DNA of 64,000 nt. It comes from Alphaproteobacteria bacterium (GTDB lineage: Bacteria > Pseudomonadota > Alphaproteobacteria > Caedimonadales > UBA9215). Shown here in pieces: positions 318-7,287 of the stretch (the stretch's first letter is position 1; each line of letters starts with the position of its first letter). Location: positions 3,140-67,139 of the forward strand of contig JAJSAD010000052.1 in assembly GCA_024281375.1 (NCBI GenBank), written 5' to 3'. A program made the position numbers and the translations under genes. Under the pieces are notes generated by a model, which worked only from the letters and a program-made list of their open reading frames with translations, was not told the DNA's origin and did not search any database.

Positions 318-644
318 ATGACTACTATTATAACCCCACCCCCCTCAGTTGTTGCCTATAGTGCAACACCTGTTGGAAGTCAAAAACAGACACGCACTCC
401 AGATTTGAAAACAGAGGTTGTACAAGCTGCTGTCCCCAAAGATTTAAGGGTGCAACAGGGGAAAGAAAAGCCTCGTGGAGATTTCCCCGAAACATATCGC
501 CGTACAGGGGCAGATGGAACGGACAGACTGGTTATGTTAAATGAAGAGGGTGTTAAGTCTGAAACACGCATACCAACGCCTTCACAAAAAATACAACTAT
601 TAACTGATATAAAAGCGTCACCAAAATTGGATCAAATAGCTTAA
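318..644 (+). CDS. flaG: FlaG-like flagellar protein
   Basis: 108-aa ORF preceded by GGGAG SD. The C-terminal LVMLNEEGVKSETRIPTPSQKIQLL resembles the FlaG motif (V.D..TGEVIRQIP.EE.L). Its position immediately upstream of fliD-fliS is typical for flaG. Confidence 0.5.
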   Translation: MTTIITPPPSVVAYSATPVGSQKQTRTPDLKTEVVQAAVPKDLRVQQGKEKPRGDFPETYRRTGADGTDRLVMLNEEGVKSETRIPTPSQKIQLLTDIKASPKLDQIA

Positions 645-2842: not shown

Positions 2843-3352
2843 ATGAATCTTTATAATAAAATTTATGGATCAATCCAAGAAAATATTCCTCAATTTAAAA
2901 ACCCTGAGGAAGCTCTTTCCTTTTATCTTGAAGGCGCCTCAAAACACTTAGCTAAGGCTGAACTTGCTGCCAAAGAAGAGCGTTTTGAAGATCGCTCTAA
3001 TCACAGTGATAGAGCATTACTTATTTTTAGTGGCATTCTGAGTCACCTTGAGCAATCCCCCCCAGAAGAAAAACAAGATGTGAAGGGCCTTATCGAGTAT
3101 TGTCGTGCGATGAATGATCTTATTATTCTTATGAATATAAAAAATGACTTGAAAATGGCAGAGAATCTCACTAAGGAAGTCAAAAAAATGGCACTATATT
3201 GGAAAGAGCGTTCTGATGCTGCGGTGGTAAATAGGACGGCCAATCAAGATGGAAACGTGAAGGTATTGCCAGATCAAAGCGTTACAATGCCTCATCCAAC
3301 GTCCCCTTATCCATCAACACAAGGGACCAAAACTGCTGATTTTTCTGCCTAA
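2843..3352 (+). CDS. fliS: Flagellar export chaperone FliS (with about 45-aa C-terminal extension)
   Basis: 169 aa, starting 17 nt after fliD. The four-helix pattern is FliS-like (PEEALSFYLEGASKHLAKAE...RALLIFSGILSHLEQS...LIEYCRAMNDLIILMNIKNDLKMAENLTKEVKKMALYW). Confidence 0.75.
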   Translation: MNLYNKIYGSIQENIPQFKNPEEALSFYLEGASKHLAKAELAAKEERFEDRSNHSDRALLIFSGILSHLEQSPPEEKQDVKGLIEYCRAMNDLIILMNIKNDLKMAENLTKEVKKMALYWKERSDAAVVNRTANQDGNVKVLPDQSVTMPHPTSPYPSTQGTKTADFSA

Positions 3353-3449: not shown

Positions 3450-3817
3450 TAGTAGAAATGTTTTGGAAACTATTTTTCCGGGACTATGAGTTTGAAATAA
3501 AATATTTTTAGTGCGTCCTTCTTAGGATAATTATGCTTGAGTGTGTCGTGCGATTTCCCCTCATAACCTAGAAAATAAAACAGCCAATATAATCTTTGTT
3601 AAAAAGATTGTATGTCGAAATTTTGTGTGCCGTTTTTATGTAACCACAAGATATTTCACAAGTTTTGCACACGTTTTATACGTACCCCGGTCGCTTTATA
3701 AGCATTAAAAGGAGAGGGTAAATGTGCATCAAGAGACAGCCTGGCCGTCTTGGCCGATGAGTTTGAGGGGACACTAAGCTGAGACCCTTTTCCCCCCGGG
3801 GAACCGCCAGGTTGGGA

Positions 3818-3848
3818 AACCGGCCCTGTTTACAGGGTCGGTTTTTTT
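3818..3848 (+). terminator. Rho-independent terminator not attached to any ORF of 60 aa or more
   Basis: AACCGGCCCTG (3818-3828), loop TTTA, then CAGGGTCGGTT (3833-3843). This forms an 11-bp stem with one G-U pair, followed by TTTTT. It lies about 470 nt after the fliS stop and about 120 nt before the next gene. Confidence 0.7.
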
Positions 3849-3966
3849 ATTGTCTTAAGAGTTTGTGCAAAATCCTCAATGTTAAGTTTCGTTCTTAACA
3901 TTGTAATATTTTTATTGTTGATGTCATATAAATAATGTTGCCAATTAACAATTAAAGGATTTAACA

Positions 3967-5586
3967 ATGTTACAATACAAAAAATATTTTATGAAAGTTT
4001 TATTAGGATCTACAGCTCTTGCATCATCAATGAGCTTCGATGCGCTTGCTGCTTCTCAATTGCAAGTGGAGCAAAACGGATTCTTCGGCGGACTTTATAA
4101 ATTACCATCTTCAAAGCATCAATCTAATTTTGATCGTCTTGTTAATGCTAAAATAGATGTAGAAATTGCTCGTCAATTACAAGTTCAGGAAGATGCAAAG
4201 TTTGCCCGTGAACTCGCTCAAATCGAAGGTGATGCAGAATTTGCTCGTCAATTACAAGCTCAGGAAGATGTAAAGTTTGCCCGTGAACTCGCTCAAATCG
4301 AAGGTGATGCAGAATTTGCTCGTCAATTACAAGCTCAAGAAGATGTAAAGTTTGCTCAGTCACTTTCGGACTCTCCTGTAGAAAATATTGAAGCAAGTTT
4401 AACTCCTGTTGTTGTTGCGAAAGCTGACCCTAAGAGTGATCTTCTCTCTGAGATTCGTGGTTTCAACAATGCTGGTTTGAAAAAAGCACCTGCTATTGTT
4501 GCGAAAGCTGACCCTAAGAGTGATCTTCTCTCTGAGATTCAAGGCTTCAACACGGCTGGTTTGAAAAAAGCTCTTAAAGTTGAGCATCGCCCTTTACCTA
4601 TTGTTCCAGCGCTTTTGAAAAGAGATAATTTGAAAAAGGCTGATGAACGTGTGGTAGAAGAGCTGCCTAATCTAAACGCACATTCTGTAGAGGCTTTAGA
4701 GAAAATGCTTACAACACCGCAAAAGTCTTTTATGAAAAAGCATATCCAACAAATATTGGCGATGAAAAAGAACGCGGAAGAAGCTCAACAACGCATTCAA
4801 ATGGCTATTGCACAGAGCAAAAAAGAAGTAAAGCCTGACCTTACCCTTGAAAAACCTAAGAGTATTATGGAAGTCCTCGCCGAAAAGATTCAAAATGTTG
4901 GTCAGGTAAATACAGTAATAGCTCAGACAGCTGATCAAGCCATTGAGGCTCTAAAAGAGGCGGATATTGACGATTTAAATACTGACGCTAAAAACTTAGT
5001 TGCGACGGCCCTTAAGGAGAATGTTGATAAGTTATCTTGGTTTGTGTCACAATTCTATGATGTGGATGCTGGTTGGGAGTTTGATTTTGCCGAAGCTGAT
5101 GAGATCATGGCTGAAATGAAAAAAAGCGACGTTGTTGAAGACGATCTACCCGTAACTAACAAAAAAGTTAATGGCGTTGGGCGGTTGAATTTATCAGCGG
5201 ATGGTGGTTTGGATATTCTGTCACAAATTCGTAATGCACGTGGGGTTATTAAGGCGACAGTTGAAAGCGATAATGTAGCTGTCAATTTTAATAACACTCC
5301 CATTGTGAATGCTGATAAAGACGCAAGAGAAGAATTTACGTTCGTGGCGATTAAAACTACACAGCCAGCTAAAAAGGTTGTTGTGAAGATTTTAGATGAA
5401 GGTGAGAATAATACTGGAGGTCTTTTGGCAGCTATTCAAGGCTTTAAATTTGGAAACCTTAAGACTGTAGATGTTGATGAAATTGAAGTCGAGAAAATTC
5501 AAGAACCAACGAACCACTTTTTGAATGCAATGGCAGCACGTCGCGCCGCAATAGGTGGTGGTGATGATGAAAGTGAAGAGTGGTAA
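3967..5586 (+). CDS. Secreted WH2-repeat / WCA-domain protein (putative WASP- or RickA-like Arp2/3 nucleation-promoting factor)
   Basis: 539 aa with AAAGGA SD 8 nt upstream and an N-terminal Sec-type signal (MKVLLGSTALASSMSFDALA). Two near-identical WH2-like motifs are present: DLLSEIRGFNNAGLKKA and DLLSEIQGFNTAGLKKA. The C-terminus reads LLAAIQGFKFGNLKTV - HFLNAMAARRAAIGGG - DDESEEW, which is a WH2 + amphipathic C helix with RR + acidic tail with terminal Trp. Confidence 0.75.
   Translation: MLQYKKYFMKVLLGSTALASSMSFDALAASQLQVEQNGFFGGLYKLPSSKHQSNFDRLVNAKIDVEIARQLQVQEDAKFARELAQIEGDAEFARQLQAQEDVKFARELAQIEGDAEFARQLQAQEDVKFAQSLSDSPVENIEASLTPVVVAKADPKSDLLSEIRGFNNAGLKKAPAIVAKADPKSDLLSEIQGFNTAGLKKALKVEHRPLPIVPALLKRDNLKKADERVVEELPNLNAHSVEALEKMLTTPQKSFMKKHIQQILAMKKNAEEAQQRIQMAIAQSKKEVKPDLTLEKPKSIMEVLAEKIQNVGQVNTVIAQTADQAIEALKEADIDDLNTDAKNLVATALKENVDKLSWFVSQFYDVDAGWEFDFAEADEIMAEMKKSDVVEDDLPVTNKKVNGVGRLNLSADGGLDILSQIRNARGVIKATVESDNVAVNFNNTPIVNADKDAREEFTFVAIKTTQPAKKVVVKILDEGENNTGGLLAAIQGFKFGNLKTVDVDEIEVEKIQEPTNHFLNAMAARRAAIGGGDDESEEW
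4165..4359 (+). repeat. In-frame tandem repeat, 75-bp unit x 2.6 (25-aa unit FARQLQAQEDVKFARELAQIEGDAE)
   Basis: Unit starts at 4165, 4240 and 4315. Only a few substitutions distinguish the copies. Confidence 0.9.
4414..4581 (+). repeat. In-frame tandem repeat, 84-bp unit x 2 (28-aa unit VAKADPKSDLLSEI.GFN.AGLKKA...), each carrying a WH2-like motif
   Basis: GTTGCGAAAGCTGACCCTAAGAGTGATCTTCTCTCTGAGATTC occurs at 4414 and again at 4498. Confidence 0.9.
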
Positions 5587-5627
5587 AATTACCACCTATC
5601 AATGATGCCAAGACAATAACTTTAATC

Positions 5628-5657
5628 AAAGCCTCCGTCATCAACGGGGGCTTTTTC
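5628..5657 (+). terminator. Rho-independent terminator of the WH2/WCA gene
   Basis: GCCTCCG (5631-5637), 7-nt loop, then CGGGGGC (5645-5651) followed by TTTTT. The stem can extend into the flanking AAA/TTT. Confidence 0.6.
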
Positions 5658-5723
5658 TATGAGCTGCATTAGTATTTTATTAACTTTCTTTTGTTATGAT
5701 TTATATAATTATTATTGGTTTTT

Positions 5724-6761
5724 ATGATGAAAAAAGTTGTTTATGCCCTGTTATTTGTTTTGTGTTCCTTTTCCCTTAATGCTAGTGATTTAAAGTATAT
5801 AAAAAAAGTTAATCAATCTCTAGAAGCTCAACTTATTGCGAAAGGAAATGAGGTTATTCAAGCGATTTATTCCGGGAGTGATCTCTCTAAAATTAAAGTT
5901 CTCCCTCTCATTTCAACGCCTCCCAAGAAGAAAAAGAAAGGTTTTTTGAAAAAGTTAACAAAAGTAAATATCACATTGCTGGGAAAGAAAAGTAAAGCTA
6001 ATGAAATTCAAAAGGCCCTGAGGCGGGAATATTTAGCAAAAGTTGTTGCCGTGATTTGGAAAATATATGATGTAGGTAAGAAACAAGGTGTCACCGGTAG
6101 TAGCGTATCTTATAAAATTATTGACAATGGAAAGAAATTATATCTCTTTTTAAAAGGCTATGTAGATATGGCGAAATCTCATTCCAGCAGTTTTGCCTAT
6201 GATCGAAATCCTGCGAAGAAATTATCGAGCCACTATAAAGAAGAAAGCCCCGAGAGCCAGTTTGGTGTAGATATAAGGTTTTATGCAAATCAATCCTCTT
6301 TGTCTATTTTACCTCACAAGAAAAAACATCTTTTATTTGGACGTCTATATTTTCAAGGTGGCACATCACCTGATTTATTATTTGTTAAATTTGAAGAATA
6401 CGGCATTGGTGCTTTGTCAGAAAAAGTTGCCCATGGATTTAACTTTCTTAAGAATTTAGCACGTTCAAAAGCTGACCTTTCAAAAAAGAGGATTGAAAAA
6501 GTAATTTTACCTGCTATTGCAAAAAGGTACCTTGAAATTGTTGAAAAAGTCCCTAAAGAATTAAGAACAAAGTTCTTTCTGTCTAAACCTAAAAGTATTA
6601 AAACGATGCTTGAAAGTGTTCGAATATTAGCTCAAGAGAAACCCAATTTTCAAAGTAATGAAAAAAGATTTCTAGATTTTTTAAAGCAACAATATCCACA
6701 TGATGACACTTATATCAAATGGCGTTCTGGAAATGAAGTTATTATGAAACTGTCTAACTAG
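5724..6761 (+). CDS. Hypothetical secreted Lys-rich protein, no recognisable domain
   Basis: The track ORF starts at TTG 5715; ATG at 5724/5727 is the more likely start. Signal peptide MKKVVYALLFVLCSFSLNAS. It has a basic patch PPKKKKKGFLKKLTK. I recognise no family. Confidence 0.55.
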   Translation: MMKKVVYALLFVLCSFSLNASDLKYIKKVNQSLEAQLIAKGNEVIQAIYSGSDLSKIKVLPLISTPPKKKKKGFLKKLTKVNITLLGKKSKANEIQKALRREYLAKVVAVIWKIYDVGKKQGVTGSSVSYKIIDNGKKLYLFLKGYVDMAKSHSSSFAYDRNPAKKLSSHYKEESPESQFGVDIRFYANQSSLSILPHKKKHLLFGRLYFQGGTSPDLLFVKFEEYGIGALSEKVAHGFNFLKNLARSKADLSKKRIEKVILPAIAKRYLEIVEKVPKELRTKFFLSKPKSIKTMLESVRILAQEKPNFQSNEKRFLDFLKQQYPHDDTYIKWRSGNEVIMKLSN

Positions 6762-7287
6762 AAACGCCGCAAGCCTTACATATCGCCTTGTAAGCCTTAA
6801 GAGTACCAGCTAAAGAATAGGTATCTTTTGTGGCTGTTCCTCGAGCAGATTTTCCCTCTACAATCATCTCAGACCCTTTTTTGGTGATTTGATCGGTCAT
6901 CATGTTATCGGTTTTAGTATCTTGCCACCAAGCGACTTCCCCTTCTGTGAACATCTTCACAATCTTGTTTCCTCTGCTGGATTTTATAGTCACTTTTATT
7001 TCCCCAGCTTTTGGAAAGCAATATCCCGCATGAAGACTTAGAACATTTTTGCTATTGATTTTGGGGCGATGGGTGATCACTGCATAGACTTGACCGCGCT
7101 TTGTATATTTTCCTTCGCTTTTTTTAGCAAGGCTTACCATATAACAGATATCGCCTTTTTTATAAGCTTGCCAACTTCCATATTTCCCTAAATTTTTAGG
7201 GTCAGCAGCAAAGCTTGTTGATGAAAGCAATACCGTTATAAAAATTGCTGTGCTTAAAAAACGAAAAGAGGTCATGATTTTCTCCAT
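6754..7287 (-). CDS. Invasion-associated locus B (IalB) family periplasmic protein
   Basis: 177 aa with a signal peptide. The pattern GSWQAY..GDxCYMVS.AKK...R...YAVITHRP....vLS...GY.F......V.I.......MF....AWW.......M...I.KG..MIV.G.S.RGT...DTYSL.G...A...I...C matches alphaproteobacterial IalB-family proteins as I remember them. Confidence 0.55.
   Translation of the reverse strand: MEKIMTSFRFLSTAIFITVLLSSTSFAADPKNLGKYGSWQAYKKGDICYMVSLAKKSEGKYTKRGQVYAVITHRPKINSKNVLSLHAGYCFPKAGEIKVTIKSSRGNKIVKMFTEGEVAWWQDTKTDNMMTDQITKKGSEMIVEGKSARGTATKDTYSLAGTLKAYKAICKACGVSS

Follow-up and report, generated by a model that had tools for sequence, protein, structure and literature searches.

A candidate WCA-type effector with additional beta-thymosin-type WH2 motifs encoded in a genome fragment of the Holosporales

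The stretch of DNA analysed here (the window) comprises 64,000 nucleotides of the alphaproteobacterial contig JAJSAD010000052.1 (assembly GCA_024281375.1, positions 3,140 to 67,139) and contains at positions 3967-5586 of its forward strand a complete open reading frame (ORF) of 539 codons and a stop. The deduced product, which is identical to the 539-residue NCBI protein P0001 encoded on a 67,460-bp contig, is probably a secreted and largely disordered effector of a member of the Holosporales that mimics the WH2-central-acidic (WCA) region of nucleation-promoting factors (NPFs) of the Arp2/3 complex and carries extra WH2 repeats of the beta-thymosin type. An earlier inspection of the nucleotide sequence alone (the sequence-only reading) had proposed a candidate Arp2/3 activator with a signal-like N-terminus and a WCA tail, and this core proposal holds at the sequence level in terms of a Pfam WH2 match, predicted helices and a conserved tail. 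The ORF and each of the motifs quoted at that time were recovered as well, the translation being an exact match.

The C-terminal tail of the protein (residues 484-539, positions 5416-5583) reads GGLLAAIQGFKFGNLKTV ... HFLNAMAARRAAI ... GGGDDESEEW. The WH2-like motif GGLLAAIQGFKFGNLKTV at its beginning displays the I-x-G-F-x4-L-K-[KT] spacing that is also present in two tandem motifs of the same protein scoring in Pfam. The connector HFLNAMAARRAAI has the features of a C helix, with the succession H-F-L-N-A-M-A-A-R-R-A-A-I including a conserved Arg, and can be placed in register with the segment ILSRRIAV of WAVE1. A search for homologues by exhaustive phmmer comparison with 1.84 billion representative proteins (E<=1e-3) returned five other proteins, among them three true relatives: P0002 with 543 residues and 46% identity, the 316-residue fragment P0003, and P0004 with 795 residues and 31% identity over the C-terminal 200 residues. 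P0004 originates from Ca. Paracaedimonas acanthamoebae, an endosymbiont of Acanthamoeba, and bears the automatic UniRef name 'WH2 domain-containing protein'. A metagenome scan added a 544-residue sister of P0002 encoded at positions 5035-6669 of locus L085 on a 593-kb contig, which brings the full-length members of the family to four (P0001, P0002, P0004 and the L085 protein). The remaining two phmmer matches were rejected as family members, P0005 consisting only of repeats of the type D-A-R-L-A-R-Q-L-Q and P0006 being an unrelated repetitive protein. Word-indexed searches yielded the self-match only, whether the query was the protein or the alignment of the family.

All full-length homologues keep the succession G-x-LL-x2-I ... 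L-[KN]-[KT]-[VA], followed by H-[FL]-x2-A-[ML]-x-A-x-R-[RA]-x-[AS]-[IM] and by an acidic run, so that the tail with its Trp is retained in all three full-length relatives of P0001. The acidic tails read DDESEEW, DDEDESWDD, DDEDESWDDF and DELDDEWED, with the Trp located zero to three residues from the end. Each of the three elements W, C and A is invariant or conserved across homologues that share only 23-46% overall identity, and the invariant columns of the alignment concentrate in the motifs, with diverging linkers between them. When the protein sequence was shuffled 200,000 times, an acidic, Trp-bearing tail arose at a frequency of 4e-4, and such a tail is present in one of the 289 ORFs of the six-frame translated window. 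Apart from this tail frequency, a composite test with regular expressions for WH2 and C was uninformative, since the patterns were too tight: the WH2 pattern missed thymosin beta-4, and the C pattern missed WAVE1 and the bacterial tails. A role of the terminal Trp as part of an outer-membrane-protein beta-signal was considered and rejected, as an alternating hydrophobic pattern is lacking and the Trp of the homologues precedes DD, DDF or ED.

The bacterial tails were compared with verified eukaryotic WCA regions, namely N-WASP (PDB 6uhc, chain H, 401-501) and WAVE1 (PDB 4n78, chain D, 495-559). A hidden Markov model (HMM) built from the four bacterial tails ranked the WCA region of human WAVE1 first among about 650 decoy ORFs, with 12.4 bits and an E-value of 0.004, and the resulting alignment is colinear, leading from LLEAIR to ILSRRIAV and to the start of the acidic region. 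In a shuffle-calibrated Smith-Waterman comparison of the central-acidic (CA) regions, the bacterial sequences gave z values mostly between 1.8 and 3.2 against N-WASP and WAVE1, with one pair at 0.5. This range is comparable to the z value of 2.1 obtained for the CA regions of N-WASP and WAVE1 themselves, and the statistical support for the connector is modest (z 2.4-3.2). The complete WCA region of P0004 scored z 5.9 against that of N-WASP, and none of 3000 shuffles was as good.

The WH2 part of the assignment is carried by the two tandem motifs DLLSEIRGFNNAGLKKA and DLLSEIQGFNTAGLKKA (residues 150-202, positions 4414-4572), which are encoded by an 84-bp DNA repeat with 2.0 copies and 91% matches. 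The Pfam family WH2 (PF02205) matched with 27.5 bits, above its curated threshold of 23.1 bits, with contributions from both motifs (residues 154-175 and approximately 185-205), and a single tandem motif scanned alone reached 18.8 bits. The sequence-only reading had remarked on a spacing that exceeds the one of canonical WH2 domains by two residues, and this turned out to be correct, as the pattern I-x2-F-x4-L-K-K equals that of thymosin beta-4, MAEIEKFDKSKLKKT (PDB 4pl7). This shared spacing explains why Pfam Thymosin matches below its threshold, in P0001 with the stretch 187-211. The equivalent of the terminal W motif forms the best Thymosin stretch of P0002, and in P0004 the equivalent NLLDQIRNNKQLINLKKA scored 15.2 bits with Pfam WH2, which is below the threshold. 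The number of WH2 repeats varies among the relatives, with two in P0001 and three in both P0002 and the L085 protein, and the tandem array is missing from P0004. Since P0004 retains the terminal WCA region without the tandem WH2 motifs, the WCA tail is the constant of the family.

An AlphaFold2 model calculated from a four-sequence alignment was mostly disordered and of low confidence (mean pLDDT, the predicted local distance difference test, 41.8). The short helices that it contains (residues 155-167, 184-191, 414-423, 486-491 and 517-528) fall on the WH2 motifs and the C motif, and disorder interrupted by short amphipathic helices is the appearance of a WCA region. Eukaryote-type short motifs strung along a disordered chain are moreover typical of effectors.

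At the N-terminus, the segment MLQYKKYFMKVLLGSTALASSMSFDALA combines a Lys-rich n-region with a 12-residue hydrophobic core (Kyte-Doolittle value 1.5) and an A-L-A motif, and was classified heuristically as signal-peptide-like. P0002 and the L085 protein share an equivalent segment, MKNTLLVFLLGTTAISSSMTGEALA followed by SS; between P0001 and P0002, conservation of the h-region and c-region is unusually high. The segment could alternatively be a membrane anchor instead of a cleaved signal. The source organism is assigned to the Holosporales on the basis of the polynucleotide phosphorylase encoded in the window, which is 87% identical to that of a metagenome-assembled genome labelled 'Holosporales bacterium', 64% identical to those of Caedibacter sp. 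and Ca. Paracaedimonas, and shares 60-62% identity with its counterparts from various Alphaproteobacteria in the GTDB representative set. Every member of the Holosporales characterised so far depends on an association with a eukaryote, in most cases a protist, and many of them have flagellar genes (PMC11909080; PMC5751055). A target in the host cytosol is therefore plausible, and the source bacterium presumably is an intracellular symbiont of a protist.

In the mechanism that we propose, the protein would cross the inner membrane via Sec and reach the host cytosol in a second step, or alternatively its N-terminal segment would anchor it in a membrane. The WH2 motifs would then load actin monomers, and the C helix together with the acidic Trp tail would bind and activate the host Arp2/3 complex. 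Branched actin would thereby be assembled around the bacterium or the vacuole that contains it, serving entry, movement or remodelling of the niche.

Several results weigh against this interpretation. The terminal WH2-like motif of P0001 gave no Pfam match when scanned alone, and sequence searches of the PDB returned nothing significant, whether the query was the full protein, the profile of the tails, the tail of P0004 or the N-terminal repeats. The family HMM, which found WAVE1, did not retrieve N-WASP; an HMM made from the two WCA sequences of N-WASP and WAVE1 likewise missed the bacterial tails, although this is a weak test, because MAFFT misaligned the two C regions. The profile similarity of the tail to eukaryotic WCA regions is weak. 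A proline-rich region, as found in WASP, RickA, ActA and Wbm0076, is missing from the candidate, whose Pro content is 3.2% and whose sole proline motif is RPLPIVP. The proposed Sec signal is present as a signal-like segment in P0001, P0002 and the L085 protein but is not evident in P0004, the start codon of which is fixed by upstream stops. The annotated ORFs of the window include no specialised secretion genes; the earlier statement that type III (T3SS) and type IV secretion system (T4SS) genes are absent was borne out among these ORFs, in which the only export genes found were Sec, Tat and YidC housekeeping genes and an RND pump. Taken together, the WCA assignment is well supported by the motifs and their conservation and weakly by profiles.

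The main alternative is that the protein uses its WH2 or beta-thymosin-type motifs to bind actin monomers and acts as a sequesterer or as a direct nucleator like VopL/VopF, Spire and TARP, independently of Arp2/3, the CA-like tail having another purpose or none. It would account for the fact that the sole database-significant signal, WH2/Thymosin, stems from the tandem repeats, for the variation between two and three repeats among relatives, which is known from tandem-WH2 nucleators, and for the statistically weak similarity of the CA region to eukaryotic NPFs. We nevertheless regard it as unlikely, because every full-length homologue conserves the C helix as well as the acidic stretch with its terminal Trp, because P0004 has the tail without the tandem WH2 motifs, and because the alignment of the family HMM with WAVE1 extends across the C region. 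A different view concerns delivery only: the N-terminal segment might be a membrane anchor that places the WCA region on the host or vacuolar membrane after translocation by another system, as proposed for the Wolbachia protein Wbm0076, whose transmembrane segment precedes a VCA (verprolin homology-central-acidic) region and whose activity in yeast requires membrane targeting (PMC9980815). The unusual conservation of the h-region and c-region would fit such an anchor, and candidate systems exist in these bacteria, since type VI secretion systems are widespread in Holosporales (PMC11909080; PMC5751055) and a vir-type T4SS is present in Paracaedimonas (PMC5751055). The short and moderately hydrophobic 12-residue core with its A-L-A motif, however, is more in keeping with a signal peptide than with a transmembrane helix, and a comparable segment is missing from P0004; an anchor of this kind is considered rather unlikely.

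The location of the gene invites two further explanations. The sequence-only reading had placed it directly after a flaG-fliD-fliS cluster and had speculated on export by the flagellar type III apparatus. The genes fliD (763-2826) and fliS (2843-3352) were confirmed, but the presumed flaG (318-644, forward strand) has no Pfam match at E<=0.01, and direct adjacency was refuted by a 614-bp spacer that holds a strong terminator with a 15-bp stem at positions 3814-3847. Flagellar neighbours are lacking at the three homologous loci, where the gene lies next to an aspartate kinase gene with DUF3576 and leuS, or next to genes for coproporphyrinogen oxidase, an alpha/beta-hydrolase and mnmA. Flagellar substrates are not known to use a hydrophobic Sec-type N-terminus as a signal, and the N-terminus of the candidate is of this type. 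Flagellar export is therefore scarcely credible, even though the gene is located downstream of fliD-fliS and a review considers that the flagella of Holosporales might double as a secretion system (PMC11909080). The same neighbourhood, the Sec-type N-terminus, the disordered and low-complexity sequence, in which short-motif matches are common, and the lack of significant PDB or full-WCA profile matches could also point to an ordinary periplasmic, envelope or flagellum-associated protein, in which eukaryote-like motifs arose by chance within charged helical sequence. This is very improbable in the light of the Pfam WH2 score above the curated threshold and the conservation of motifs rather than linkers; the family is moreover tiny, its only organism-labelled member comes from an endosymbiont of the Holosporales, the flagellar adjacency is not conserved, and terminators of its own bracket the gene.

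Apart from the WH2 motifs and the tail, the putative WCA-type effector contains further conserved or repetitive segments. The tandem helical repeats near the N-terminus are encoded by a 75-bp DNA repeat (2.7 copies, 96% matches) and were modelled by AlphaFold2 as a single long helix spanning residues 52-134. They matched the Pfam families UBZ_FAAP20 (23.2 against 25 bits) and CCDC50_N (19 against 27 bits) below threshold and the N-terminus of RIOK3 in the PDB weakly (E 0.07-0.18), and Pfam UIM gave no match in them. The repeats resemble eukaryotic motifs interacting with ubiquitin (MIU) and ubiquitin-interacting motifs (UIM) and are possible candidates for ubiquitin-binding helices. In P0002 and the L085 protein the repeats take the forms D-[AE]-L-L-A-R-x-L-Q and D-A-E-F-A-R-S-L. 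The proline motif R-P-L-P-I-V-P presumably conforms to the class I SH3-ligand pattern R-x-L-P-x-hydrophobic-P, and its counterparts are RRPLPTLP in P0002 and the L085 protein and RRPLPIIP in P0003.

The two internal blocks that are conserved best in the family have no Pfam or PDB match. The central block (residues 355-386) has the consensus Y-x5-W-[DE]-F-[DG]-F-x5-IM and includes the acidic Trp motif Y-x5-W-[DE]-F-[DG]-F at residues 364-374. The second block (residues 406-431) includes the stretch GGLDILSQIRNARGVIKAT (residues 413-431, positions 5203-5259), for which a helix is predicted at residues 414-423; it lacks an LKKV motif and gave no Pfam WH2 match when scanned alone. This WH2-like helix is possibly a second actin- or Arp2/3-binding helix. 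In their make-up the two blocks loosely echo the A and C elements, the first being acidic with a Trp and the second an amphipathic helix with Arg. It may be speculated, with little confidence, that the acidic Trp motif (residues 364-374) and the L-x2-IR-x-ARG-[VI]-[IV] helix (residues 418-428) form a second, permuted A/C-like pair, by which one chain would fill both NPF sites of the Arp2/3 complex without dimerising, that the MIU-like repeats and the SH3 motif would target ubiquitinated membranes or the endocytic machinery, and that delivery would proceed from a Sec-loaded periplasmic store as in the infectious forms of Holospora.

The positions of all features are summarised in Table 1. A second hairpin with a T-run follows the stop codon and a terminator lies upstream, and the candidate gene is therefore probably monocistronic; the hairpin downstream was absent from the listing of the consensus terminator scan. 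Within the upstream spacer, the stretch 3696-3852 (forward strand) has a G+C content of 53% compared with 35% for the spacer, is predicted to fold with -56 kcal/mol (z -2.0) and ends in the 15-bp-stem terminator. Rfam gave nothing credible for the spacer, and the structured stretch could be a small RNA or the terminator of the fliS operon. The G+C content at third codon positions (GC3) of the candidate gene is 0.287, compared with 0.36-0.45 in nusA, infB, pnp, argS, serS and secD, in a window of about 42% G+C; such a value would suit a gene that is accessory or was acquired laterally, but is not diagnostic. A tblastn search of plasmids and a scan of the GTDB representative genomes with the candidate protein both yielded zero matches, and the source species is apparently absent from the GTDB representatives.

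The downstream ORF 5715-6761 (forward strand, 348 codons) encodes a protein with a signal-peptide-like start, MKKVVYALLFVLCSFSLNA, and a stretch PPKKKKKGFLKKL, without a family match. It has the lowest G+C content among the genes measured (0.327, GC3 0.264), and its product may be another accessory or secreted protein. ORF 6754-7287 on the reverse strand, two genes downstream of the candidate, specifies a signal-peptide-bearing protein of 177 residues that matches Pfam IalB (invasion-associated locus B) with 28.8 bits against a threshold of 22.1. The rest of the window includes yidC, rnpA, nusA, infB, pnp, argS, serS, secDF, tatC, lptDFG, the RND pump and a hybrid kinase. In Ca. Paracaedimonas acanthamoebae, a signal-peptide-bearing protein of 543 residues without a Pfam match is encoded directly downstream of P0004 (locus L082, 12529-14160), which may be a co-located secreted protein.

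Table 1. Features of the candidate effector gene, its product and the flanking hairpins (positions refer to the window)
Feature	Residues	Positions	Strand	Evidence
Candidate WCA-type effector ORF		3967..5586	+	Translation; identical NCBI protein P0001
Sec-type signal-peptide-like segment, MLQYKKYFMKVLLGSTALASSMSFDALA followed by AS	1-28	3967..4050	+	Heuristic inspection
Tandem helical repeats D-x-[EK]-F-A-R-[EQ]-L-[AQ]-x-x-E	63-135	4153..4371	+	Four regular-expression matches, residues 76-125
WH2/beta-thymosin-type actin-monomer-binding motif 1 (putative), AKADPKSDLLSEIRGFNNAGLKKA	150-174	4414..4488	+	Best Pfam WH2 stretch 154-175; helix 155-167
WH2/beta-thymosin-type motif 2 (putative), AKADPKSDLLSEIQGFNTAGLKKA	178-202	4498..4572	+	Second Pfam WH2 stretch; helix 184-191
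Proline motif R-P-L-P-I-V-P	208-214	4588..4608	+	Fits R-x-L-P-x-hydrophobic-P
Central block KLSWFVSQFYDVDAGWEFDFAEADEIMAEMKK, acidic, invariant Trp370	355-386	5029..5124	+	Invariant Y, W, F, F, I, M, K in three homologues
Most conserved family motif RLNL-x4-G-x3-L-x2-IR-x-ARG-[VI]-[IV]	406-431	5182..5259	+	Invariant L, N, L, G, L, I, R, A, R, G
W element of the putative terminal WCA, GGLLAAIQGFKFGNLKTV	484-501	5416..5469	+	Invariant G-x-L-L-x-x-I and L; helix 486-491
C element (connector), putative amphipathic helix, NHFLNAMAARRAAI	516-529	5512..5553	+	Invariant H, A, A, R; helix 517-528
A element (putative acidic tail) GGGDDESEEW, C-terminal Trp539		5554..5583	+	Asp and Trp invariant
Intrinsic-terminator-like hairpin between fliS and the gene		3814..3847	+	15-pair stem with 7 G-C pairs, then T-run
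Terminator-like hairpin GCCTCCG-TCATCAA-CGGGGGC, then TTTTT, just after the stop		5631..5656	+	Read from sequence

Bacterial mimics of the WCA region are already known, namely RickA, ActA, BimA of B. thailandensis and Wbm0076, and serve as textbook cases of molecular mimicry between pathogen and host. With the eukaryotic proteins N-WASP and WAVE1 the candidate shares the order of its putative W element and its C and A elements at the extreme C-terminus, a C helix with hydrophobic residues and one or more Arg followed by A-I or A-V, and a Trp zero to three residues from the end; the likeness of its CA region to those of the WASP family is about as strong as that between N-WASP and WAVE1. In contrast to the eukaryotic proteins, its WH2 linker is two residues longer and of the thymosin beta-4 type, the acidic tail comprises 10-13 residues, WH1, GBD, SHD and proline-rich regions are lacking, and the tandem WH2 motifs are located about 280 residues upstream of the WCA region. 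A combination of three WH2 motifs with a CA region is found in JMY. VopL/VopF possess three WH2 motifs and a dimerisation domain without a CA region and are T3SS substrates without a Sec signal. Like the candidate, these secreted proteins of Vibrio contain closely spaced WH2 repeats (bioRxiv 10.1101/2025.08.14.669974).

RickA of Rickettsia and Tisiphia resembles the candidate in its C-terminal WH2-central-acidic region, through which it acts, and contains one or two WH2 motifs (bioRxiv 10.1101/2025.08.14.669974). It differs in the N-terminal repeat or G-actin-binding domain, the proline-rich region and the lack of a Sec signal (PMC11077975; bioRxiv 10.1101/2025.08.14.669974), in contrast to the Sec-type N-terminus of the candidate. 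RickA was not among the phmmer matches, and it is set apart from the candidate by those matches and by its description. The distinction from RickA that the sequence-only reading had drawn from the signal peptide is thereby upheld, but the uniqueness that it implied is weakened by Wbm0076, in which an N-terminal transmembrane segment is combined with polyproline and a VCA region and membrane anchoring is needed for activity in yeast (PMC9980815). Wbm0076, a WAS(p)-family-like candidate effector with orthologues, and the protein described here resemble each other in architecture only: each comes from an alphaproteobacterial endosymbiont, presumably so in the present case, and combines a hydrophobic segment at the N-terminus with a V-C-A region, here a putative one, at the C-terminus. 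Wbm0076 has polyproline regions, belongs to the Rickettsiales instead of the Holosporales and was not retrieved by the exhaustive phmmer search, whereas the candidate additionally has WH2 motifs of the beta-thymosin type in tandem, repeats of the form D-x2-F-A-R-x-L-Q and a central block that is conserved. A precedent for the route from Sec via the periplasm to the host exists within the same order in the 89-kDa protein of Holospora obtusa, which is stored in the periplasm, carries two actin-binding motifs and is exposed to the host at invasion (PMC9866348); the parts of this source available to us do not report a CA module or Arp2/3 activity. This protein was not retrieved as a phmmer homologue of the candidate and was compared by its description only.

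Literature searches revealed no publication that deals with WCA or NPF proteins of Holosporales, and the automatic 'WH2 domain-containing' name is the only previous label of the family. The molecular basis of the interaction of Holosporales with their hosts is described as poorly understood (PMC11909080), and the Sec-type N-terminus poses the tractable question of how a protein routed to the periplasm gets to the host cytosol. Judged by its sequence matches, the family is new and not detectably homologous to the known WCA mimics, belongs to another order and displays a distinct set of motifs, although the kind of protein as such is known. RickA, ActA and Wbm0076 belong to bacteria that are pathogenic or symbiotic in animals; if the proposed function is correct, the hijacking of Arp2/3 would extend to the Holosporales, a lineage of protist symbionts that is ancient, and the candidate would join these systems as a further case of convergent or laterally acquired mimicry by short motifs.

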